NCBI GenBank assembly: GCA_036000845.1
Contig: DASYUW010000050.1
Span: forward strand, 8,238-72,237
Length of the DNA stretch: 64,000 nucleotides
Source of the DNA: Burkholderiales bacterium
GTDB lineage: Bacteria; Pseudomonadota; Gammaproteobacteria; Burkholderiales; JACQAP01
Direction of reading: 5' to 3'
The stretch's first letter is position 1. Each line of letters opens with the position of its first letter. The notes under the pieces were generated by a model. The model did not search any database. It saw nothing but the letters and a program-made list of their open reading frames with translations, and was not told the DNA's origin. Below, one piece after another: positions 21,822 through 60,868 of this stretch. The translations under genes and the position numbers were made by a program.

Positions 21822-22046
21822 CTAGTGTCCTGTCCCGCTGATTCGTGGGATAACTTTCGAACCTTGAAAGCCAGCCTTCTGATGAATTTGACAGCAATCC
21901 ACTTTGGTCGGAAAACCCGCGAAATCGGCGTCAGGCAAGGCGCGAGTCCTTGACAGTGGCGGGGCCCCACGGCGAGGACTCGTAACACAGCATGGCGCCG
22001 ATTCTCGTCGGGTTTTCAGCCAGGAGTCAGCGGGACAGGACACTAG
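21822..22046. mobile_element. MITE copy 1 (225 bp) with perfect 20-bp terminal inverted repeats CTAGTGTCCTGTCCCGCTGA
   Basis: The left end ctagtgtcctgtcccgctga and right end tcagcgggacaggacactag are exact reverse complements. The internal part is about 85% identical to 56510..56676, with an extra ~60 bp at 21842..21909. No ORF. Confidence 0.8.
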
Positions 22047-30741: not shown

Positions 30742-31251
30742 TCACGGCGTCGCGTCGCCGCCTCGATTTGCTCCGTCCCGTCGCATACGCAGGCGCAGCG
30801 TGCCGTCGGCCTGCGACACTTGGAAATGACGCAGGAAATTCTGACCGAGGAGGCCTTCTCCATCATGCGCCGGCATCACCGCAACGGTAAGGCCGGAAAG
30901 CTCGAACACGTCCGCCTTTACGGTCTGGTTTCTCACCACCCGGCCCTCGACAGTGCCGTTGGCGGTGCTGAAATAGCCGGGGATTCCTTCCGGCAATCCG
31001 GCCGAACGGGCGAACTCCGCGCCGACCGATACGTAACTGGCGCCAGTGTCGATCATGAATCGCAGAGGCACGCCGTTCACCGCACCATCGAGGTAGTGGT
31101 GACCGTTGCGCGAGACCGGTATCGCGATCTCCTGCCTTCCACCGGCCAGCGAACGCGCGACCGGCGGCGGCACCATCATGCGCTCGGTCATGAGATAACC
31201 GGCGAACACCAAGCCGACCCAGACCGCGGTCCAGAACAGATGTCCCTTCAT
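30742..31251 (-). CDS. Membrane-anchored retropepsin-like (clan AA, DTGA-type) aspartic protease
   Basis: 169 aa with one N-terminal TM helix and the motif FMIDTGASYVSV. Confidence 0.8.
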   Translation of the reverse strand: MKGHLFWTAVWVGLVFAGYLMTERMMVPPPVARSLAGGRQEIAIPVSRNGHHYLDGAVNGVPLRFMIDTGASYVSVGAEFARSAGLPEGIPGYFSTANGTVEGRVVRNQTVKADVFELSGLTVAVMPAHDGEGLLGQNFLRHFQVSQADGTLRLRMRRDGANRGGDATP

Positions 31252-31263
31252 CTGAAGCGGTGC

Positions 31264-31467
31264 TGGTGATTGGTGACTGGTGATTGGTAATTAGAGAAAA
31301 ACAGGACTCAGGACGCGGGATTCAGGACTCAGTGAAAAGAAAGCCAGATATTGAATGCAGGACTCGATGAAAAAACACTTCCGACCGACCGCTTTGCTCC
31401 CTCTCTCCGGTACCCGGGTAGAGGGCCGGGGTGACGGGCAAGTCCTGAGCCCTGAATCCTGAGCCCC
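31264..31467. repeat. Heptamer-array element: TGGTGAY x4 (31264-31291), CAGGACT-type x4 (31302-31332), and inverted AGTCCTG-type x3-4 (31441-31467)
   Basis: Read directly: TGGTGAT TGGTGAC TGGTGAT TGGTAAT; CAGGACT CAGGACG CGGGATT CAGGACT; AGTCCTG AGCCCTG AATCCTG AGCCCC. The last two arrays are mutually complementary across a ~108-nt spacer. Confidence 0.75.
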
Positions 31468-31474
31468 GTCTTTA

Positions 31475-32035
31475 TTATCCCGTGGTCCGGCGCAGGTATT
31501 CGCCAGTGCGGGTGTCGATTTCGATCTTGTCGCCGATGGCGCAGAACAGCGGCACGCGCACTTCGAAGCCGGTGGCGATCTTGGCGGGCTTGAGCACCTT
31601 GCCCGAGGTATCGCCGCGCACCGCCGGCTCGGTGTAAGTGACCTCGCGCACCACCGTGTTGGGTAGTTCCACCGAAATCGCCCTGTCGTCATAGAACACC
31701 ACCTGGCAGGGCAGGCCTTCCTCGAGGTAGTTGAGCGCGTCGCCCATGTTCTCCTTGTCCACCTCGAACTGGTTGTACTCGGCGTCCATGAACACGTACG
31801 AGGGCTCGGAGTAATACGAATACGTCAGTTCCCTGCGGTCGAGGACCAGGTTCTCGAGCTTTTCGTCGGCCTTGTAGACCACCTCGCTGACGCCGCCGGT
31901 CAGCAGGTTCTTGAGTTTCATCTTCATGACGGCTGAGTTGCGGCCGCCCTTGTTGTATTCGGCGCGCTGCACGACCATCGGATTCTTGCCGACCATGATT
32001 ACGTTGCCGGCGCGCAGTTCCTGTGCCTGTCTCAT
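31475..32035 (-). CDS. efp: Elongation factor P (Arg32 type)
   Basis: Start [15 protein letters not shown]. The loop [21 protein letters not shown] places Arg at the modified position. Full-length collinearity with EF-P. Confidence 0.95.
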
Positions 32036-32091
32036 CGTGTTTCCTGACAAATCAACAAATAGTGGGTTGGGCGAAAAGAAAAAGCGTCGAA

Positions 32092-33213
32092 TTATAGCCT
32101 TTCCGCACAAAATTTAGCCAGATTCCCAGCCAGATCGCCGGGTCCGGCGAGTCGTTGTTCCCAGGCCTGCGCCAATTCCCGATATTCCGGCCCGCTGCAG
32201 GCCGTCCAGGCTGCCGCCAGCCCATCGACCGCGGCAAAACCGTTCCACACCGCCCACAGTTTGGCCAGATTTGCGCTGGTGCCGGGCCCGGCATGCTCGA
32301 GATAGCGTGCCAGGAAGGCCTCGACCTTCAACCGGTGCGCATCGCCGGCCTGCGGATAGGCCTGCCAGACCAACGGTCGGGCCGCCAACTGCGCACGTAC
32401 GAAGGAATCCTCGCCGCGCACGAAATTCCAGTCGCAGGACCACAGTACGCGGTCGTAGTCGTATTGCGAAAGAAAGGGGAGCATTTGCGCAATGAGCGTG
32501 CCGACCCGCCCGCCTCCCGCCAGGCCGCGTGCCGCGAGCACATCCGCGGCCGCGGTGCCGGCAAACGCAAGCGCGCGCACCGGGCGCCCGCCGGTAGCCC
32601 AGACGTCCAGGAGCGCAGCGACCGGCGCCTCGGGATAGCAGAACAGCGAGACCAGCTGCTCGCCGTGGGCCCGCGGCAGCACGCCGAGCGACGCCAGAAA
32701 CTGCGCCACGCCGCCCGCGTCGGACTGGAATGCCAGCCGCCGCGCGGCCAATCCCTTTTCGACCAGCACGCCGCCGGTACCGGGGACAAAGCCAGGGAAG
32801 AAGAAGTACTTCGTCAGAGGCAGCCGCTGATGCGGCGACGGCAGGCCATGGCAGCCGCCGACCCAGGGTTCGGCGCTCAGATATTCGAGATTGATCCACA
32901 CCGGCGACCGTGCACGCCCGGCCATGGCCTCGACAAACGAAGCCGGCAATTCGCAGCCGAAAGTCTCCACCACCATATCGGCAGGCTCCACCGCCGGAAA
33001 CGGCGTGATCCAGCGCCGCACCTCGACGCCGTCGAGCGACTGCGCACCGCTTCCGGGATCGAGCGCCGGCGCCAGCCGCCCGAAGGTCGCCAGATCATCG
33101 ACCCAAAGCCGCACCGCGGCGCCGTGTTCGGCGGCAAGCTGGCGCGCCAGCCGCCAGCTAACACCGATGTCGCCGAAATTGTCGACGACGTTGCAGAAGA
33201 GATCCCAGCGCAT
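32092..33213 (-). CDS. earP: EF-P arginine-32 rhamnosyltransferase EarP
   Basis: [31 protein letters not shown] is the hallmark EarP N-terminus. The gene is adjacent to the Arg-type efp. The track start 33219 is a TTG; I prefer ATG 33213. Confidence 0.85.
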
Positions 33214-33217
33214 AGGC

Positions 33218-33305
33218 AAGGATGAAGGATGAGGGATGAAGGATGAAGGAAAGTCAAAAGCCTTTGAACTTACTTCATCCTTCTGCCTTCCGCCTTCATA
33301 CTTGC
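33218..33305. repeat. Heptamer-array hairpin, AAGGATG family (copy 1)
   Basis: Left arm: AAGGATG AAGGATG AGGGATG AAGGATG AAGGAAA. Right arm: TACTTCA TCCTTCT GCCTTCC GCCTTCA TACTTGC. The arms are largely complementary. The loop-proximal ttgaacttacttcatcc is shared with 60793-60809. Confidence 0.8.
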
Positions 33306-33307
33306 TT

Positions 33308-34045
33308 TCAGGCCATCCCCCCGTTGATCGAGATGACCTGGCCGGAGATGTAGCCGGCTTCGTCGGACGCCAGAAATGCGGCCAGCGCCGCGACTTCCTC
33401 GGGGGTGCCGGCGCGTTTCATCGGCACCATCGCATCGATCGTTTCTTTGGGGAAAACCTGCGCGGTCATCGGCGTGGCGATGATTCCCGGCGCAATCGCG
33501 TTTACTGTGACGCCGCGCGAGGCCAGTTCAAGCGCCAGCGACTTGGTGGCGCCGTGCAGGCCGGCCTTTGCCGCCGCGTAGTTGACCTGGCCGCGGTTGC
33601 CCATCACGCCGGTCAGCGAGGAGATGTTGATGATGCGGCCCCAGCGGGTTCCCATCATCGGTAGCAGCAATGGCTGGGTGACGTTGTAGAAGCCGTTGAG
33701 CGACACGTCGATTACGCGATCCCACTGCTCGCCGCGCATTCCGGCGAGTGGCGCGTCGTCGTGCACGCCGGCGTTGTTGACGAGCACCTGGATCGGCGCC
33801 TCGTCGATAAGCGCGCCGAGCGCTCTGGCGGCGTCGCCGCGGTCGGTTACGTCGAAAGCGATTGCCTGCGCCTTCGCCCCGCCTGCGCGCAATTGCGTGG
33901 CGAGCTCCTCAGCGGCCCCAAGCCGGTTGTTGGCGTGCACGATCACCTCCAAGCCCCGGGCGGCGAGCATGCGGCAGATCGCCACGCCGATTGCACCGCT
34001 ACCGCCGGTCACCAATGCGCGTTTCGCCCTCGTTGAATCAATCAT
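33308..34045 (-). CDS. fabG: 3-oxoacyl-ACP reductase (FabG/ApeQ-like SDR)
   Basis: 245 aa. TGGSGAIG cofactor motif, NNAG, and the catalytic YAAAKAG. Confidence 0.9.
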   Translation of the reverse strand: MIDSTRAKRALVTGGSGAIGVAICRMLAARGLEVIVHANNRLGAAEELATQLRAGGAKAQAIAFDVTDRGDAARALGALIDEAPIQVLVNNAGVHDDAPLAGMRGEQWDRVIDVSLNGFYNVTQPLLLPMMGTRWGRIINISSLTGVMGNRGQVNYAAAKAGLHGATKSLALELASRGVTVNAIAPGIIATPMTAQVFPKETIDAMVPMKRAGTPEEVAALAAFLASDEAGYISGQVISINGGMA

Positions 34046-37396: not shown

Positions 37397-38188
37397 ATGC
37401 CTGACCGCTCCAAGACACATCTAGTTCTGATCCCCAGTTACGACACCGGTGACAAGGTCCTGGAAACAGTCCGCAAAACGCAGCGTCTCTGGGAGCCGGT
37501 GTGGGTGGTGGTGGATGGGAGCACCGACGGCACTGCGGAGCGACTGCAGGCCCTCGCCCGCGCCGACGCCGGACTGCGGGTGTTCGTGCTGCCCCGCAAC
37601 CAGGGCAAGGGTGCCGCAGTACTGCACGGCCTGCGCGCGGCGGTCGCGCAAGGCTACACCCACATACTGACCTTGGACGCCGACGGCCAGCACCCGGCCG
37701 AGCGCATCCCGGCATTCATGCAAATGTCGGCGCTGCAGCCCGAGGCGCTGGTGCTGGGCAAGCCGATGTTCGACGCCACAGCCCCCAGGCTGCGGGTGAT
37801 GGGCCGGCGCATTTCCAACTGGTGGGCAAATCTCGAGACGCTTTGGGCGGGTATCGGCGACTCGCTGTTCGGCATGCGCGTCTACCCGGCTGCGGCGCTG
37901 CTGCAGGTGATGGAGTCGCAGCGCTGGATGCGGCGTTTCGACTTCGACGTCGAAGCCGCGGTGAGGCTGGTATGGGGTGGCGCCCATCCGGTCAACCTGC
38001 CAGCGCCTGTCCGCTATTTCCGCCCCGAGGAAGGCGGCGTGTCACATTTCAACTACCTGCGCGACAACGCGCTGCTGAGCTGGATGCACACCCGGCTGTT
38101 CTTCGGGTTCCTGATAAGGTTGCCGGTATTGATCGCAAAGAAGCTGAGAACAGAGAGGACAGGGGAAAGAGGAAAGACAAAAGCTTAA
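37397..38188 (+). CDS. Glycosyltransferase family 2 (DPM1-like)
   Basis: LVLIPSYDTG...VVVDGSTDGT...LTLDADGQH is the GT-A DxD architecture. The last ~14 codons lie in the heptamer array. Confidence 0.85.
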   Translation: MPDRSKTHLVLIPSYDTGDKVLETVRKTQRLWEPVWVVVDGSTDGTAERLQALARADAGLRVFVLPRNQGKGAAVLHGLRAAVAQGYTHILTLDADGQHPAERIPAFMQMSALQPEALVLGKPMFDATAPRLRVMGRRISNWWANLETLWAGIGDSLFGMRVYPAAALLQVMESQRWMRRFDFDVEAAVRLVWGGAHPVNLPAPVRYFRPEEGGVSHFNYLRDNALLSWMHTRLFFGFLIRLPVLIAKKLRTERTGERGKTKA

Positions 38189-38270
38189 AACCCAAGGAAC
38201 GGGCTCGGCATCGGTCCGTTCTGCTTTTTCTTGCCTCTTTTAACTTTTCTCTTTTGTCTCGCTTCTTCCC
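38146..38270. repeat. Heptamer-array hairpin, purine-rich variant, between convergent genes
   Basis: Left: GAGAACA GAGAGGA CAGGGGA AAGAGGA AAGACAA AAGCTTA. Right: TGCTTTT TCTTGCC TCTTTTA ACTTTTC TCTTTTG TCTCGCT TCTTCCC. Both stop codons (38186-88 and 38240-42) lie inside the element. Confidence 0.75.
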
Positions 38271-40579
38271 GTCAGAATCGCGGCGAACACCAGGCTTAGA
38301 AAGGCACCGATCGCGACCGTGGAGCCGATGGCCGACAGTACCGGGGTGCTGGCGAAACCGATGACGCCGAAGCCGATGACTGTGGAGAGATTGCAGAGCA
38401 ACAGCGAGGTCACGGTACGCTCCGGGATGGCGTTGGCCATGTTGCGGCGCTCGAAGAACAAGGTGTAGTTGGAACCGACACCAATCACCAGCAGCAGCGC
38501 GACCACATGGAAGATGTTGAGCCGGTCGCCACCGGCAATCAGGATCGCGACGGTGACGATGACAGCGGCGGTGAGCGGCGCAAGCACTTCCCAGGAACGC
38601 CGCAATGATCGCAGCGCTGCCGCCAGCAGTAGCACAATCGCGGCCGCACCGAACAGCGCGAACTGCAGCACCCTCGCCAGGTAGCCCTGATACAACGCAT
38701 CGGATTCGCGCTTGAGGTCGAGCAACACCACCCCTTGCGGACCGAAGCGCTCGATTTGCTGTTCCAGCGCGACGGTGTCGGTCACGCCCCGCAGCGGCAG
38801 CATCGCAAACCACTGTGCGCGCCGTTGAACCAGCAGCGCCTCCAGCTTCAACGCCAGCGCTGTGCCCTGCAGGTCCGCACGCACCAGCGCGGGCTGCCTC
38901 TTCGCCGCTTGCGCTTCTTCGACGAACGGCGTAAATACCCCGGCGCGAAACGGCAGACCCTCCGCAGCTTTGGCCAGATCGCGCCGCAGTTTTTCGGCGT
39001 CCGGTATCGCCCTCTGGCGGGCCCGTTGTGCGGCCACGCTCGGAAGATAGTGCGCCGGGGAATCGTAGCCCGCCAGCACTCCAGCGGACTGGAGTCCGGC
39101 GAGTACAACACCCACGCGTTCGGCCGTTTCCAGCGCTGCCTGCTCGGAATCGCCCGTTACCACGACCAGCTGACGCACGTCCGGCGCTCCAAGATCGCTG
39201 CGCAATGCCTCGTCCATGCGTTGATCGGACGCCGATACCGGGCTCAGGCCGGACAGGTCGTCGTTCCACGGTGTTGCACCCTGCAAGGTCAGCCATACGG
39301 CCAGCACGAGAACAATCCCAATCAACGGCACGCGCAATGCGCGGCCGCGCGCGATCAGGCGCAACAGCACCGGCGCCAGCGTGCCCACGGCCCTGACGCT
39401 ATAGCCACGCGGCACCAGTTCGGGCAATACCCAGCGCGTCACCGCCGCCGCCGTCACCAGTCCGGCGATCGAGAACAGCCCGAGCTGCGCCAGCCCTGGG
39501 AATCCGGAGAACAGCATCGCGGCGCAGCCCAACACCGAGGTGAGCACGCCCAGCCGCAACGTCGGCCAAATGCGCTTGAGCGCGGCTTGCGGCGGGCTGC
39601 CCGGCGCCGTGTTGGTGAACAGGTAAATCGCGTAGTCAACCGCCTCGCCGATCAGTGTGGCGCCGAAGCCGAGGGTCACACCGTGCACCGAGCCGAAGCC
39701 CAGGCTAACCGCAGCGATACCGGCCAGCACCCCGCTGGCCACCGGCACCAGTGTCAGCGCGAGCACCCGCACCGAGCGATACGCGATCAGTAGGCCTGCG
39801 GACACCAGGACTGTGGCAATCAGGGAAAAACGCAGCGCATCCTGCTTGATGCCGGCGCGGGACCTGACCGCAAAGACGCCCGGTCCGCTGACTAGCAAGC
39901 GCGCGCTGTCGGCACGCTGTTCGTGCACCGCCTGCTCGAAAGCCGTGCGGATCGCTGCATGCGCCTGCTCCTGCGCGTCCAGGTCGAAACCCGGGGCGCG
40001 GGTCTGAGCCAGCAGCAGCGCGCGGCTACCGTCGCGCGAGAACCAAACGTCGCCGCGCTTGTCCGGCCCGCCTTCCTCGCGCAATTGCTCGAGCAGACGC
40101 AGGAACTCCCCGGTCGGGTCGCGCGGCAATAGCGGCCCAACAAGCATGCTCGCCGGCGAACCGAGCAGGTCGAGCTGGCGCTCCAGCGCCGCGCGCAGGC
40201 CGGTGACGCTGAAGCGTTCCGGCGCCACCGCCCCGCTGAGCAGATAACGATTGCGCAGCAGGAATTCACCGTCGACGCGCAGCCGGTCCTGCGCACCGTT
40301 GGCAACGTGGGCAAAACGCGCATCGTGCTCCAGCCGGGCGGCCAGTCCCCGGCTTACGGCGGCGAGCCGGTCCTGCGGCGCGCCTTCGATTCCGACTAGG
40401 GTCAGCCGCGACACCACGCCGTCGCGCAGTTCGTCCACCAGCATCTGCTGCGCCGGTGTGGGGGAACGCGGTAGAAAGGCCGCGAGATCGGTGCTGAACT
40501 GCGTGCGCGCGATGACGAAGATGCAGGCGGCCACAAGCGCGAGCCACATACCGATGGCCAGCCGTGCCGGAGATGTCAC
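38240..40579 (-). CDS. MMPL/RND-superfamily exporter (ApeM-like)
   Basis: About 780 aa with two 6-TM bundles and two large periplasmic loops. Start assigned to GTG 40579, which forms a GTGA overlap with the upstream stop. The longer N-terminus in the track (40729) is Arg/Pro-rich and implausible. Confidence 0.8.
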   Translation of the reverse strand: MTSPARLAIGMWLALVAACIFVIARTQFSTDLAAFLPRSPTPAQQMLVDELRDGVVSRLTLVGIEGAPQDRLAAVSRGLAARLEHDARFAHVANGAQDRLRVDGEFLLRNRYLLSGAVAPERFSVTGLRAALERQLDLLGSPASMLVGPLLPRDPTGEFLRLLEQLREEGGPDKRGDVWFSRDGSRALLLAQTRAPGFDLDAQEQAHAAIRTAFEQAVHEQRADSARLLVSGPGVFAVRSRAGIKQDALRFSLIATVLVSAGLLIAYRSVRVLALTLVPVASGVLAGIAAVSLGFGSVHGVTLGFGATLIGEAVDYAIYLFTNTAPGSPPQAALKRIWPTLRLGVLTSVLGCAAMLFSGFPGLAQLGLFSIAGLVTAAAVTRWVLPELVPRGYSVRAVGTLAPVLLRLIARGRALRVPLIGIVLVLAVWLTLQGATPWNDDLSGLSPVSASDQRMDEALRSDLGAPDVRQLVVVTGDSEQAALETAERVGVVLAGLQSAGVLAGYDSPAHYLPSVAAQRARQRAIPDAEKLRRDLAKAAEGLPFRAGVFTPFVEEAQAAKRQPALVRADLQGTALALKLEALLVQRRAQWFAMLPLRGVTDTVALEQQIERFGPQGVVLLDLKRESDALYQGYLARVLQFALFGAAAIVLLLAAALRSLRRSWEVLAPLTAAVIVTVAILIAGGDRLNIFHVVALLLVIGVGSNYTLFFERRNMANAIPERTVTSLLLCNLSTVIGFGVIGFASTPVLSAIGSTVAIGAFLSLVFAAILTGRSETKEKS

Positions 40580-50312: not shown

Positions 50313-50389
50313 TGGGGTGGCTGATGGGACTCGAACCCACGACAACCGGAATCACAATCCGGGACTCTACCAACTGAGCTACAGCCACC
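50313..50389 (-). tRNA. tRNA-His (GTG)
   Basis: Reverse complement is G-GTGGCTGTAGCTCAGTTGGTAGAGTCCCGGATTGTGATTCCGG...GGGTTCGAGTCCCATCAGCCACCCCA. It has the extra G-1, the anticodon loop TTGTGAT and an encoded CCA. Confidence 0.9.
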
Positions 50390-50417
50390 ACTGAAACGTT
50401 TGCCGCGTGGGGTGCGC

Positions 50418-50494
50418 TGGCGTGCCCGACAGGAATCGAACCTGTAACCCCCAGCTTAGAAGGCTGGTGCTCTATCCGGTTGAGCTACGGGCAC
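50418..50494 (-). tRNA. tRNA-Arg (TCT)
   Basis: Reverse complement is GTGCCCGTAGCTCAACCGGATAGAGCACCAGCCTTCTAAGCTGG...CAGGTTCGATTCCTGTCGGGCACGCCA. Anticodon loop CTTCTAA. Confidence 0.9.
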
Positions 50495-50524
50495 GACTCT
50501 GAACCGGGCACGACTCTCGCTATC

Positions 50525-50601
50525 TGGTCGGGGTGGAGAGATTCGAACTCCCGACATCCTGCTCCCAAAGCAGGCACGCTACCAGGCTGCGTTACACCCC
50601 G
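50525..50601 (-). tRNA. tRNA-Pro (TGG)
   Basis: Reverse complement is CGGGGTGTAACGCAGCCTGGTAGCGTGCCTGCTTTGGGAGCAGG...GGGAGTTCGAATCTCTCCACCCCGACCA. Anticodon loop TTTGGGA. Confidence 0.9.
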
Positions 50602-54021: not shown

Positions 54022-54111
54022 TGGCGGAGGGTGAGGGATTCGAACCCCCGATACCCTTGCGGGTACGCTGGTTTTCAAGACCAGTGCATTCAACCGCTCT
54101 GCCAACCCTCC
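54022..54111 (-). tRNA. tRNA-Ser (TGA)
   Basis: Reverse complement is GGAGGGTTGGCAGAGCGGTTGAATGCACTGGTCTTGAAAACCAGCGTACCCGCAAGGGTATCGGGGGTTCGAATCCCTCACCCTCCGCCA. It has a long variable arm and the anticodon loop CTTGAAA. Confidence 0.9.
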
Positions 54112-54186
54112 GCTGCAATAACTCTGCCGGTTTTAGCTCCGGCTAACCTGAAGGTTACCCTACCCTAGCGCAAGCTTTGCGTGCGC

Positions 54187-54222
54187 CAAGACCGGTGCAT
54201 TTAACCGCTCTGCCACCCTTCC
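54187..54222 (-). pseudogene. Partial copy of tRNA-Ser 5' half (acceptor to anticodon loop), unit 1
   Basis: 32/36 identical to 54076-54111. Similarity stops inside the anticodon loop. It is the first of two tandem units of about 106-111 bp. Confidence 0.7.
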
Positions 54223-54292
54223 GTATCACGCCTGATTTAGCTCCGACATAACCTGGAAGGTTAGTCTACGCAAGCGCCGGCTTTGCAGGCGC

Positions 54293-54328
54293 CAAGTCAG
54301 GTGCATTCAACCGCTCTGCCAACCCTCC
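54293..54328 (-). pseudogene. Partial copy of tRNA-Ser 5' half, unit 2
   Basis: 33/36 identical to 54076-54111. The flanking sequence (GGCGC..GCAAAGC...TAACCT..AGGTTA...GGAGCTAAA) is shared with unit 1. Confidence 0.7.
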
Positions 54329-54445
54329 GAAGGGCGCAAATGATACGCGCATGGCCCGCGCCCGCCAAATGAGGCGTTGAAACTTTGACCCCGGTTAAGT
54401 AGTCTTATGACCTGTAAATTCCATCCCTGAGGAGCCTGTAACCAT

Positions 54446-56509: not shown

Positions 56510-56676
56510 TTAGTGTCCAGTCCCGCTGATCATCGATCGGAAAACCCGCGAAATCGGTGTCAGGCAAGGCGCGAGTCCTCGCCGTGCGTGTCGGAGCGCG
56601 GAAGAGGACTCGTAACACAGCATGGCGCCGATTCTCGTCGGGTTTTCAGCCACGAATTAGCGGAACAGGACACTAG
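56510..56676. mobile_element. MITE copy 2 (167 bp), same family as 21822..22046
   Basis: Ends are TTAGTGTCCAGTCCCGCTGA ... TTAGCGGAACAGGACACTAG. The internal imperfect palindrome gaaaacccgcgaaatcgg...ccgattctcgtcgggttttc is shared with copy 1. It fills the whole gap between the rlmD start and the exonuclease stop. Confidence 0.8.
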
Positions 56677-59713: not shown

Positions 59714-59804
59714 GCGAACGATCCAGAAATGCTAGTGACGAGGGATAAAAAATGACGATTGAACGACGGACATCGTGAATCGAACGACGCCCGCGGCGTA
59801 TCCG

Positions 59805-59846
59805 CACTTCATGCTTCCGCCTTCAGCCTTCATCCTTGACCTTCGA
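59805..59846. repeat. Solo CCTTCA-type heptamer array overlapping the hldA stop
   Basis: CACTTCA TGCTTCC GCCTTCA GCCTTCA TCCTTGA CCTTCGA. There is no complementary AAGGATG arm nearby. Confidence 0.65.
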
Positions 59847-60792
59847 ACAATTCTTCGGGGTGAACCACGGCGGTGCCGAGCTTGCCCACGACGATTCCGG
59901 CCGCCTTGTTGGCGAACTGCACTGCCTCGGCGAAGCCGGCGCCGGCCGCAAGCATCACGCCGAGTACGGCAATGACGGTGTCTCCGGCGCCGCTGACATC
60001 GTATACTTCGCGCGCCACGGCGGGCACGTGCAGCCGCTGCTGGTCGCCATACAGCGTCATGCCCTCCTCGCTGCGTGTGATCAACAGAGCATCCAGCCCC
60101 AGTTCACGGCGCATCTTCTGCGCTCTTTCGGCGAGATCGTCCTCGCTTTTCCAGCGTCCCGCCACTTCGCGGAACTCTGCGCGGTTGGGTGTGACCAGCG
60201 TCGCGCCGCGATAGCGGCTGTAATCGTCTCCCTTCGGATCGACCAGCACCGGCTTTCCCGAGGCACGCGCCAGCTCGATCATCTTCTCGATGTGCCTGAG
60301 CCCGCCCTTGCCGTAGTCGGACAGGATCACCACGTCCGCTTTCGGCAGTCGCGACTCGAAGTCGGCGAGTTTGGACATCAGCACTTCATGCCCCGGCTCG
60401 GTTTCGAAATCGATGCGCAGCAACTGCTGCTGGCGGCCGATCACGCGCAACTTGATGGTGGTGGCGAGCCCGGGATCGCGATGCATCTGAGCGGTGATAC
60501 CATCGGCCTCGAGCAGGCGCTGGAGGCAATCGCCGGCTTCGTCCTGCCCGACCACTGACAGCAGCGCAGCCTGCGCACCGACAGCGACGATGTTGCGCGC
60601 AACGTTGGCCGCGCCGCCGAGGCGCTCCTCGGTGCGCCCCACCTTCACCACCGGCACCGGCGCCTCCGGCGAGATCCTGCTCACCTCGCCGAACCAGTAG
60701 CGGTCGAGCATCACGTCCCCGACCACCAGTACCTGCGCGGAACGTAAGGATGAAGGGTGAAGGATGAAGGATGAAGGAGGGTCCGAAGCCAT
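59830..60792 (-). CDS. hldA: D-glycero-beta-D-manno-heptose-7-phosphate kinase (stand-alone HldA, RfaE domain I)
   Basis: VLVVGDVMLDRYWFGEVSRISPEAPVPVV and a PfkB-family C-terminus (DVSGAGDTVIA). There is no adenylyltransferase domain. The first ~16 codons (MASDPPSSFILHPSSL) are encoded by the heptamer array, so the true start is uncertain (GTG 60726 is possible). Confidence 0.85.
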   Translation of the reverse strand: MASDPPSSFILHPSSLRSAQVLVVGDVMLDRYWFGEVSRISPEAPVPVVKVGRTEERLGGAANVARNIVAVGAQAALLSVVGQDEAGDCLQRLLEADGITAQMHRDPGLATTIKLRVIGRQQQLLRIDFETEPGHEVLMSKLADFESRLPKADVVILSDYGKGGLRHIEKMIELARASGKPVLVDPKGDDYSRYRGATLVTPNRAEFREVAGRWKSEDDLAERAQKMRRELGLDALLITRSEEGMTLYGDQQRLHVPAVAREVYDVSGAGDTVIAVLGVMLAAGAGFAEAVQFANKAAGIVVGKLGTAVVHPEELFEGQG

Positions 60793-60868
60793 TGAACTTA
60801 CTTCATCCTTCCGCCTTCATCCTTGCCCTTATCCCTTCCGCCTTCATCCTTGGCCTTCATGGCCTTCC
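60746..60868. repeat. Heptamer-array hairpin, AAGGATG family (copy 2, largest)
   Basis: Left: AAGGATG AAGGGTG AAGGATG AAGGATG AAGGAGG. The loop is gtccgaagccattgaac. Right: about 10 heptamers of the CCTTCNN type (TACTTCA TCCTTCC GCCTTCA TCCTTGC ...) running into the ugd stop codon. Confidence 0.8.

Follow-up and report, generated by a model that had tools for sequence, protein, structure and literature searches.

Paired heptamer arrays downstream of efp in an uncultured Burkholderiales bacterium

Heptamers are the commonest class of long simple repeats (5-11-nucleotide units) in many bacteria, where they are intergenic, according to the survey of Mrazek, Guo & Shah (2007) as related in later papers (PMC4679880, PMC4692102). 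As summarized there, Burkholderia species are among the richest genomes, and polymerase slippage with a footprint of ~7 nucleotides (nt) has been proposed as the origin of the repeats (PMC4679880, PMC4692102). In Xanthomonas and Nostoc, heptamers of the types GGGAATC and GGGGAYT form intergenic arrays of about four units, whose G-rich strand is the coding strand where the array overlaps a stop codon or lies within 50 bp of it, and the non-coding strand where the array lies within 50 bp of a start codon (Rehm et al., 2015, PMC4692102). The same study reported 70-75 convergent inverted pairs per Xanthomonas genome, variation of repeat length and sequence between Xcc and Xac with preservation of the single or paired type, and an excess of transcript starts or stops at the repeats relative to control repeats; it found no association with mobile elements and no function (PMC4692102). 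Our literature search for follow-up work on heptamer pairs returned none beyond Rehm et al. Excerpts of other sources describe heptanucleotide repeats upstream of the Haemophilus influenzae hmw adhesin genes that act together with an RNase III-targeted element of the 5'-untranslated region (PMC12721329, PMC8262952), and TAACTGA repeats of Beggiatoaceae for which translational control has been proposed (PMC4679880). The omega/ParB ribbon-helix-helix system of pSM19035 uses 5'-WATCACW-3' heptads, of which at least four contiguous copies, direct or inverted, are needed (PMC9499535). Here we describe paired heptamer arrays in a 64,000-nt stretch of a Burkholderiales genome (assembly GCA_036000845.1, contig DASYUW010000050.1, positions 8,238 to 72,237; hereafter the window), located in the 223-nt spacer (31252-31474) that leads from efp, encoding elongation factor P (EF-P), to a gene for a retropepsin-like aspartic protease, both on the minus strand.

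The efp-protease spacer is a composite non-coding element, neither a gene nor a single mobile sequence. The sequence at 31264-31467 reads as a first-pass annotation of the window had described it, with three different 7-nt arrays (A, B, and C; the coordinates of all features are collected in Table 1) and a lone CAGGACT unit, and the long-range inverted pair that it had proposed across a gap of 108 nt is formed by arrays B and C and exceeds all shuffles. The best ungapped inverted-repeat score of the spacer is 13, compared with 7.4 +/- 1.0 in shuffled sequences, and none of 1000 dinucleotide shuffles reached it. The self-match score at period 7 is also 13 (3.7 in shuffles; reached by none of 300), self-matches at periods 5, 6, and 8-12 are at chance level, and period 4 is slightly raised (reached by 8 of 300 shuffles). 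Tandem Repeats Finder (TRF) called array A at period 7 with 4.1 copies, 86% matches, and a score of 44, and array B at period 7 with 4.4 copies, 75% matches, and a score of 41. Array C, whose adjacent units match at only 6/7, 5/7, and 4/7 positions, is too degenerate to be called and is therefore recognizable only as the complement of array B. A separate repeat search delimited the inverted pair as 31297-31329 and 31441-31473, i.e., 33 nt with 76% complementarity and 111 nt between the arms. The element is thus real, non-random, and well defined, and it is best regarded as a further case of the heptamer pairing reported before.

Read along the efp transcript, the order is UAA UAA AGA C; GGGGCUC AGGAUUC AGGGCUC AGGACU; the 108-nt insert; the 3' arm; the U-tract; and array A. 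The efp stop (TAA, 31475-31477 on the minus strand) is followed by a second in-frame TAA (31472-31474), and array C, which ends 6 nt from the efp stop and is preceded on the transcript by the A-run AAAGA, forms a G-rich 5' arm (CGGGGCU CAGGAUU CAGGGCU CAGGACU). Array B supplies a C/U-rich 3' arm (31302-31332), reading CUGAGUCCUGAAUCCCGCGUCCUGAGUCCUG, whose end ...GAGUCCUG runs straight into the U-tract UUUUUCUCU (U5CUCU). The arms are predicted to form a helix of ~30 bp between degenerate heptamer arrays (RGGAYKC x4 and its complement) that closes over the insert, with terminator-like flanks, namely an A-run ahead of the 5' arm and a U-run behind the 3' arm. Array A, which is independent of the arms and of the type (AAUCACC)4, is a G-poor leader that reads A AUUACCA AUCACCA GUCACCA AUCACCA, then GCACCGCUUCAG AUG, and ends 12 nt ahead of the protease ATG; a Shine-Dalgarno (SD) motif is not visible upstream of this start.

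Folding of 31290-31480 as the minus-strand transcript, a check of the kind proposed with the first-pass annotation, gave a stable structure of -76.0 kcal/mol (z = -3.3; matched by none of 200 shuffles), and the plus strand of the same segment gave -65.9 kcal/mol (z = -2.3). The arms alone, joined by a tetraloop, fold to -46.0 kcal/mol in the efp sense and to -35.9 kcal/mol in the antisense, because six G-U pairs of the sense strand become A-C mismatches on the other strand. The small hairpin that had been noticed within the spacer is likewise present (ccctctctccggtacccgggtagaggg at 31399-31425); it belongs to a GC-rich hairpin of the insert that is older than the heptamer helix. This inner hairpin also contains the sole G-quadruplex-type motif of the spacer. 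A regular-expression scan of both strands for four G3 runs gave no hit within the heptamer arrays of the window, and the G-quadruplex idea was dropped. The plus strand of the spacer carries five RGGA motifs within 65 nt and a 31-codon open reading frame (ORF) that starts at 31368, with the isolated CAGGACT as an SD-like motif before it; this part of the spacer is not conserved in the related loci L083 or L089. At the gathering score, Rfam identified only four tRNAs in the whole window, and a permissive Rfam search of 31150-33400 returned sub-threshold microRNA-precursor look-alikes on the neighboring site S2 (see below) and nothing on the efp hairpin. As a separate observation, the hairpin at 31399-31439 (CCCTCTCTCC...GGGTAGAGGGCCGGGGTGACGGGC) is ~80% identical to an unannotated intergenic repeat of Escherichia coli, ccctctccctgtgggagagggccggggtgagggc, a weak match (E = 0.3) that sits between flgG and flgH of strain 06-00048. 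This E. coli repeat is of the 'BoxC' type.

Heptamer arrays are a general feature of this genome segment. The window contains eight arrays of at least three copies at period 7, compared with 0.22 expected from 100 first-order Markov randomizations, so that the over-representation of heptamers anticipated earlier holds for the 64-kb window. Multiples of three aside, the only further array of at least three copies is one period-14 call that overlaps a period-7 array, and periods 5, 8, 10, and 11 never reach three copies. The period-7 arrays fall at five sites, the efp hairpin and the sites S2, S3, S4, and S5, which confirms the four further sites listed in the first-pass annotation, one of them a half-site. 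The four sites other than the efp hairpin were also evaluated by folding: S2 has a z-score of -6.2 (sense), S3 of -5.0 (plus strand), and S5 of -5.7 and -4.0, and S4 shows no excess. In ~621 kb around efp from 78 other betaproteobacteria we counted 11 period-7 arrays of at least three copies, or ~1.8 per 100 kb, compared with ~12 per 100 kb in the window. The two closest members of the efp-region set, L001 and L002, contain four period-7 arrays in 15 kb, together with period-8 and period-9 inverted pairs. Arrays of the lineage mostly have 3-5 units, a range to be read with the bias of the TRF score threshold against shorter arrays.

The heptamer sequences had been regarded as unrelated between the sites. 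This stands for the efp unit, and fails for the sites at 33216, 59801, and 60746, which share an AAGGATG/GAAGGCG unit; the two full hairpins among them (33216 and 60746) also share their loop, and all units of the class have a purine-rich nAGGnnn-type core. The CAGGACT-type arm occurs only at the efp locus within the window and the relatives' loci gathered by then, with 64 kb of the host genome visible for copy counting. The same build, a G-rich heptamer arm, a loop, and a C-rich heptamer arm placed at ORF ends, recurs with different units, and in orthologues the arrays expand, contract, and change units in place, which agrees with the earlier suggestion of a structure class rather than one mobile sequence at the efp site. 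At S3, both convergent ORFs end within the arms (38188 and 38240), and at the center lies a compact, terminator-like hairpin that has T-runs on each of the two strands. The last 10-15 codons of these two ORFs (stops 38186-38188 and 38240-38242) are repeat-derived (...KKLRTERTGERGKTKA and ...LTGRSETKEKS, each up to the stop).

The arrays follow a consistent orientation. In 210 kb of DNA from the lineage, all partnered G-rich arrays have their partner downstream and all partnered C-rich arrays have it upstream, and the G-rich arm comes first at each of nine independent paired sites (two-sided binomial p ~0.004). Unpaired arrays, array A among them, obey the same G-rich rule relative to the nearest ORF end, and the G-rich strand rule of stop or start proximity also holds at the other four sites of the window. 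The arms had been described as lying right behind a stop codon; this is true of the G-rich arm, and the description left out both the G-rich-first orientation and the C-rich arm, which is as near to the next start as the G-rich arm is to the preceding stop. An identical rule has been reported for Xanthomonas and Nostoc (PMC4692102). It could reflect purifying selection against G-rich, SD-like decoys ahead of starts and against C-rich, G-poor tracts that load Rho behind stops.

Evidence that pairing is maintained in the class comes from S2, which lies between the stop of a short-chain dehydrogenase (SDR) gene and the earP start and where a repeat-armed hairpin built from three unit types occupies the same spot in all seven orthologues: GAAGGNN / CCTTCAT in the window and L091, GAGGGNN / CCCTCNN in L083, L084, and L085, and CGAGGTW / CCTCGNN in L088 and L090. 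Each of the seven is clearly more stable than shuffled sequence on either strand, the sense z-scores ranging from -3.3 to -9.5. An alignment of the basal 38 nt per arm has 21 consensus pairs, 8 of them with compensatory double changes, and 91.8% of its cells are paired, compared with 41-59% when the partners are slid; none of 500 shuffles reached the pairing or the covariation score, for a set of seven sequences that represent about three lineages and from which the structure itself was derived. Unit numbers also vary: L088 and L090 differ by one 5' unit, and the 3' arm has four units in the window and six to seven perfect CCTTCAT units in L091. The pairing is conserved among these orthologues and the length of the G-runs is not, so the data speak against a quadruplex as a conserved property. 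Mini-ORFs in the 5' arm are not conserved either. In all seven, gaps of 0-8 nt separate the helix from the SDR stop on one side and from the earP ATG on the other. This ATG (33211-33213 in the window) follows the C-rich arm and lies directly across the helix base from the SDR stop; in L083, L088, and L090 the stop codon is itself paired. No purine-rich or SD-like motif precedes the earP ATG in any of the seven relatives.

Full hairpins were also identified at S5 in L097 and L095, and L093 has a G-rich array only. At S4, L095 carries a full hairpin, with the start codon ~35 nt beyond the helix, so that S4 of the window is a remnant. Window positions 33208-33305 (S2) share 92% identity with the ugd-rfaE (S5) hairpin of L097 across 98 nt that include the loop, and are unlike their own orthologues in L083-L090; the AAGGATG hairpins therefore form a dispersed family that conversion or transposition has spread. 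In L081, the whole 105-nt S2 module is tandemly duplicated (L081:7836-8045, compared with window 33207-33311), together with the sequence context of the SDR stop and the initial 7 nt of earP. A single base difference between the copies gives rise to a TAG, and the duplicated ATG opens a mini-ORF of six codons (MRSESK, then stop).

The efp spacer itself is highly variable among relatives, which we gathered through two protein searches plus contig look-ups (loci labelled L001-L098). L083, with a protease ~90% identical, has GGGACTC AGGACGC AGGCTCG right after the efp stop and the same predicted long-range pairing, followed by two 3' arms, each then CTTTTC, and by a three-unit array A. L089 retains a 3' arm, TTTTTCTCC, and a five-unit array A, and L001 has a single CTGAGTCCTG unit, TTTCTCT, and an eight-unit array A; the copy number of array A thus ranges from 3 to 8. 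The U-tract is kept as CUUUUCUCC in L083, UUUUUCUCC in L089, and UUUCUCU in L001, so that 3' arm and U-tract recur together in L083 (twice) and L089, with a single unit in L001. These comparisons show that the arrays turn over in place. In L084, L091/L092, and L098, a DJC28_CD-like ORF fills the spacer, and its stop overlaps the protease ATG as ATGA; the proteases of these relatives are 87-94% identical (94% in L098). L002 keeps the last ~70 nt of this ORF beside a different hairpin with arms of 9-nt repeats (ACGGAGGAC / TCCTCCGTG), L088 and L090 have only a direct 8-nt array in the spacer, and L085 has other sequence. At least four unrelated spacer types occur among relatives whose proteases are 80-100% identical.

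Array A occupies the position of the 3' end of the DJC28_CD-like gene and is flanked by TCTA(A)TTACC and ACCGCTTCAGATGA, which correspond to the ends of the last codons of the relatives' DJC28-like ORF. From these remains we infer that the window spacer may be a gene-loss scar colonized by heptamer repeats. A base-by-base reconstruction of the presumed DJC28-like gene deletion was dropped, since in a global alignment to L084 only the hairpin after efp and the last ~20 nt before the ATG aligned convincingly. A further spacer variant was found in L082, a contig from a sister sample that has the same protease protein and 99.8% DNA identity as far as array A, with total divergence at 31291. The divergence point coincides with the contig end and represents either a real strain variant or an assembly artefact or chimera. 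The unrelated sequence upstream of array A (L082:1-71) has a direct repeat of GTTCTGCGAACGCTGA, and these 71 replacing nt have no match among the sequences gathered for comparison.

The closest genome relatives of the window are uncultured Burkholderiales metagenome-assembled genomes. The Joint Genome Institute (JGI) metagenome contig Ga0376049_0000244 (L081) is nearly identical to it, with one mismatch in 20.5 kb. An exact-sequence look-up of EF-P matched no record. In the window earP sits upstream of efp.

Table 1. Coordinates of the heptamer arrays, associated structures, and flanking genes in the window
Feature	Position	Strand	Description and basis
efp, elongation factor P, 187 aa	31475-32038	minus	ORF; EF-P relatives; Pfam EFP_N/EFP/Elong-fact-P_C on the identical gene of L081
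Retropepsin-like aspartic protease gene, 169 aa	30742-31251	minus	ORF; Pfam Asp_protease_2 / gag-asp_proteas; homologues
Array A	31264-31291	plus-strand reading	TGGTGAT TGGTGAC TGGTGAT TGGTAAT; TRF
U-tract	31293-31301	minus	UUUUUCUCU; directly after the 3' arm; partly pairs with the A-run before the 5' arm
Array B	31302-31329, then CAG (to 31332)	plus-strand reading	CAGGACT CAGGACG CGGGATT CAGGACT; TRF
Insert enclosed by the arms	31333-31440 (108 nt)	minus	Folds into its own small hairpins
Isolated CAGGACT unit	31358-31364		AGUCCUG on the minus transcript; leftover 3'-arm unit; matches the position of the proximal 3' arm of L083
Inner hairpin	31399-31425	plus	ccctctctccggtacccgggtagaggg; sequence
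GC-rich inner hairpin	31399-31439	plus	CCCTCTCTCCGGTACCCGGGTAGAGGG, then CCGGGGTGACGGGC; homologous sequence after efp in L084 and L001
Array C	31441-31468	plus-strand reading	AGTCCTG AGCCCTG AATCCTG AGCCCCG; complement of array B
S2	33216-33305	minus	SDR stop (33308) to earP ATG (33213); arms (GAAGGNN)4 / (CCUUCAU)4, 23-nt loop
S3	38135-38275	no strand	Convergent GT2 glycosyltransferase / MMPL-family transporter genes; AGAGGAA and TTCTCTT units
S4 (half-site)	59801-59837	minus	AAGGCUG AAGGCGG AAGCAUG; overlaps the rfaE stop; no excess folding
S5	60746-60860	minus	ugd (UDP-glucose dehydrogenase) stop 60857, inside the array, to rfaE; S2-type unit and loop

We tentatively favor, with somewhat less than even confidence, the reading that the modelled efp hairpin was built by slippage and acts as a 3' stem-loop or terminator of efp. 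Replication slippage by 7 nt at a time would generate the arrays and resize them where they stand, in keeping with the general heptamer bias of long simple repeats in bacteria and with the polymerase-footprint idea; here the arrays would have grown in a spacer where other relatives keep a small DJC28_CD-like gene. Pairing of the arms would be maintained either by selection for the helix or by arm-to-arm template switching, and only the orientation with the G-rich arm beside the upstream ORF end would be tolerated. On the transcript, the G-rich arm would emerge right after the efp double stop, and the C-rich arm would then pair with it and be followed by U5CUCU, which may yield a 3' stem-loop serving as an intrinsic terminator of weak or leaky action, as a barrier to exonucleases, or as a site for processing of the RNase III type. 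Such a stem-loop might set the transcription and message stability carried into the protease gene, separating efp from it, and the G-free heptamer leader formed by array A may keep the protease start region unstructured.

Several observations weigh against this reading. The insert measures 108 nt, compared with the 3-8-nt loop of a canonical intrinsic terminator; because the ~30-bp helix closes over this insert, the hairpin was not called by a consensus scan for terminators, which found no compact terminator between efp and the protease gene and no sigma-70-like promoter on either strand of the spacer. S2, S4, and S5 are without a U-tract, which excludes termination as a function common to all members of the class. 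The fold advantage of the sense strand is inconsistent, being present at the efp hairpin of the window and absent in L083, whose arms fold to -39.4 kcal/mol in sense and -38.6 kcal/mol in antisense, and at other sites; at S2, S3, and S5 the antisense strand folds equally well or better, and an RNA-level reading is therefore not required. Compensatory changes of the arms can come from template switching without selection. Moreover, the hairpin looks dispensable: it is missing or replaced in the close relatives L084, L085, L088, L090, L091, and L098, and apparently replaced also in L082 despite its near-identity.

A neutral by-product is a serious rival, which we regard as the next most plausible explanation, with lower confidence. 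Slippage and arm-to-arm template switching (quasi-palindrome correction) would build and homogenize functionless hairpins in slack intergenic DNA, and these would expand until they meet coding sequence, selection only removing harmful orientations. The variability of the spacer behind efp, the location of the arrays at a site of gene loss, stop codons inside arrays at three sites, the independent expansion of arms (six to seven units facing four in L091), the decay of S4 in the window, and the lack of a consistent strand preference in folding all point this way, as does the finding of no regulatory role in Xanthomonas by Rehm et al. (PMC4692102). Harder to accommodate are the persistence of the S2 hairpin through three unit types in all seven orthologues, the U-tract kept after the 3' arm in three or four relatives, and the G-first order at nine of nine sites, which needs at least purifying selection. 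A non-autonomous miniature mobile element, similar to a miniature inverted-repeat transposable element (MITE) or a REPIN and inserting behind genes, would account for the AAGGATG hairpin, which occurs at three sites in 64 kb with a loop common to S2 and S5 and an S2 copy nearer to S5 than to its orthologues, for the tandem duplication of the 105-nt S2 module in the otherwise identical L081, and for the presence or absence of the efp hairpin among near-identical strains. We consider it quite improbable for the efp hairpin: the CAGGACT unit is found nowhere else in the window or in the relatives' loci gathered by then; L083, L089, and L001 carry orthologues of the 3' arm, the U-tract, and array A, with unit numbers that change in place; neither target duplications nor terminal repeats separable from the arrays were seen; in relatives that lack the hairpin, its place is taken by other sequence and is not an empty site; and the Xanthomonas repeats are not linked to mobile elements (PMC4692102). 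For the efp hairpin, a single mobile sequence was dropped as a candidate, the CAGGACT unit being absent elsewhere and the L082 replacement matching no gathered sequence.

The geometry of S2 suggests a further alternative, translational coupling, in which the helix would juxtapose an upstream stop with a downstream start that has no SD motif, and terminating ribosomes would open or bypass the stem and then initiate on the downstream gene. The 0-8-nt spacing of the S2 helix from both the SDR stop and the earP ATG in seven of seven orthologues, the paired stop in L083, L088, and L090, and the absence of a purine-rich motif before the earP ATG agree with such a device, and the ATGA overlap of the protease gene with the DJC28-like ORF in relatives implies ancestral coupling at the efp locus. 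At the efp hairpin, however, the 3' arm lies ~50 nt from the start codon; the start at S4 of L095 is ~35 nt beyond the helix, and S3 stands between convergent genes, so we hold coupling to be very improbable as an explanation of the class. Least probable, and only barely plausible in our view, is that the arrays are protein-binding heptads (omega/ParB-like), a GGA sponge for a CsrA-type protein made from the plus-strand transcript, or a G-quadruplex, a related idea that has been put forward for Xanthomonas. The AATCACC and AGTCACC units of array A nearly fit WATCACW, the plus strand offers its five RGGA motifs, and most arrays have about four units as in Xanthomonas. Against this, the units TGGTGAT, CAGGACT, AAGGATG, and AGAGGAA differ between sites of one genome, so that the class as a whole cannot be accounted for by a single sequence-specific protein; neither strand has a promoter-like site near the spacer; and, with regard to a quadruplex, the arrays of the window have no such motif and S2 conserves pairing without conserving G-run length.

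A more far-reaching reading, which we judge unlikely, is that the whole class consists of selected, self-renewing intercistronic RNA structures. Slippage would supply length variants, the arms would co-evolve to keep a stop-to-start helix that sets operon polarity or couples genes without an SD motif, such as earP, and the G-first orientation would be imposed by the avoidance of SD-like decoys and Rho-loading tracts. If true, this would give a function to the heptamer excess across bacteria; and a helix that set transcript ends or coupled translation would represent a widespread, overlooked layer of operon tuning. If the arrays are neutral, the locus would be a clean natural example of new hairpins, potentially terminators, arising in gene-loss scars.

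The repeats also have a practical consequence in that they mislead gene calling, as at rfaE, and the contig L082 ends within the efp spacer as well. Close rfaE (heptose-7-phosphate kinase) homologues (P0121-P0126) are annotated with lengths of 307-345 aa, compared with a typical 308 aa. In the window (60740-60792), an upstream extension of the rfaE ORF is possible across the C-rich heptamer arm as far as an ATG within the hairpin loop, and this points to a gene-calling artefact caused by the repeats. Repeats of other kinds were also noted in the window. A MITE-like element, unrelated to the heptamer hairpins, is present in two copies (21822-22046 and 56511-56675) that are ~90% identical and have terminal inverted repeats of ~20 nt (TAGTGTCCnGTCCCGCTGAT); the second copy has an internal deletion of 59 nt. 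A 106-nt tandem repeat at 54076-54330 (2.4 copies, 79% matches) abuts and overlaps tRNA-Ser(TGA) at 54022-54111, suggesting partial tandem duplications of the end of the tRNA gene as left by integrating elements. Three further tRNA genes (His-GTG, Arg-TCT, and Pro-TGG) are clustered at 50313-50601 on the minus strand.

Among known systems, the efp hairpin is similar to an intrinsic terminator or a REP-type 3' stem-loop in having a G+C-rich helix after the stop, an A-run before it, and a U-run after it; unlike an intrinsic terminator, its helix of ~30 bp encloses an insert of 108 nt in place of a loop of 3-8 nt. The class shares with REP, BIME, REPIN, and MITE sequences the form of intergenic imperfect palindromes behind genes, and the AAGGATG hairpin is dispersed (two full copies plus a half-site in 64 kb); it differs in having arms of tandem heptamers that gain or lose units in place, and in that the efp unit occurs at one locus. 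The H. influenzae hmw and Beggiatoaceae repeats, as far as the excerpts of these sources describe them, are likewise transcribed intergenic 7-nt repeats near starts, whose copy number can tune expression via RNA structure or processing, but they are single direct arrays of one unit before particular genes, in the context of phase variation or of proposed translational control, and not paired arms. The near match of two units of array A to the WATCACW heptads of pSM19035 is a lead only, since that is a Gram-positive plasmid system, no such protein is known or was seen here, and the other arrays of the window have unrelated units. In its cited form the work of Mrazek et al. is a statistical survey, whereas paired arms and their orientation were described by Rehm et al. 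and in the present analysis.

The closest resemblance is to the Xanthomonas/Nostoc class, to which the efp hairpin is similar in appearance and behavior without being a member of that sequence family. As in Xanthomonas, the arms consist of 7-nt units in about four copies (4.1 and 4.4), the G-rich arm begins 6 nt after a stop, array A has its G-rich strand as the non-coding strand 12 nt from an ATG, the pair is convergent with the G-rich arm first (at nine of nine sites of the lineage), and length and sequence vary among relatives with the type being kept, both at the efp hairpin (window, L083, and L089) and at S2 (seven orthologues). Different from Xanthomonas, only one of the eight efp-hairpin units fits the GGGNATC consensus (GGGATTC, in a shifted register), no heptamer array of the window has four G3 runs, the units vary from site to site, and the host belongs to an uncultured Burkholderiales lineage. 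This lineage therefore adds to the Xanthomonas report many units in one genome, an absence of quadruplex potential, and two arms that switch unit together; the compensatory change of both arms across the S2 orthologues goes beyond what was reported there, and it points to the helix and the orientation rule, not a quadruplex, as the conserved features.

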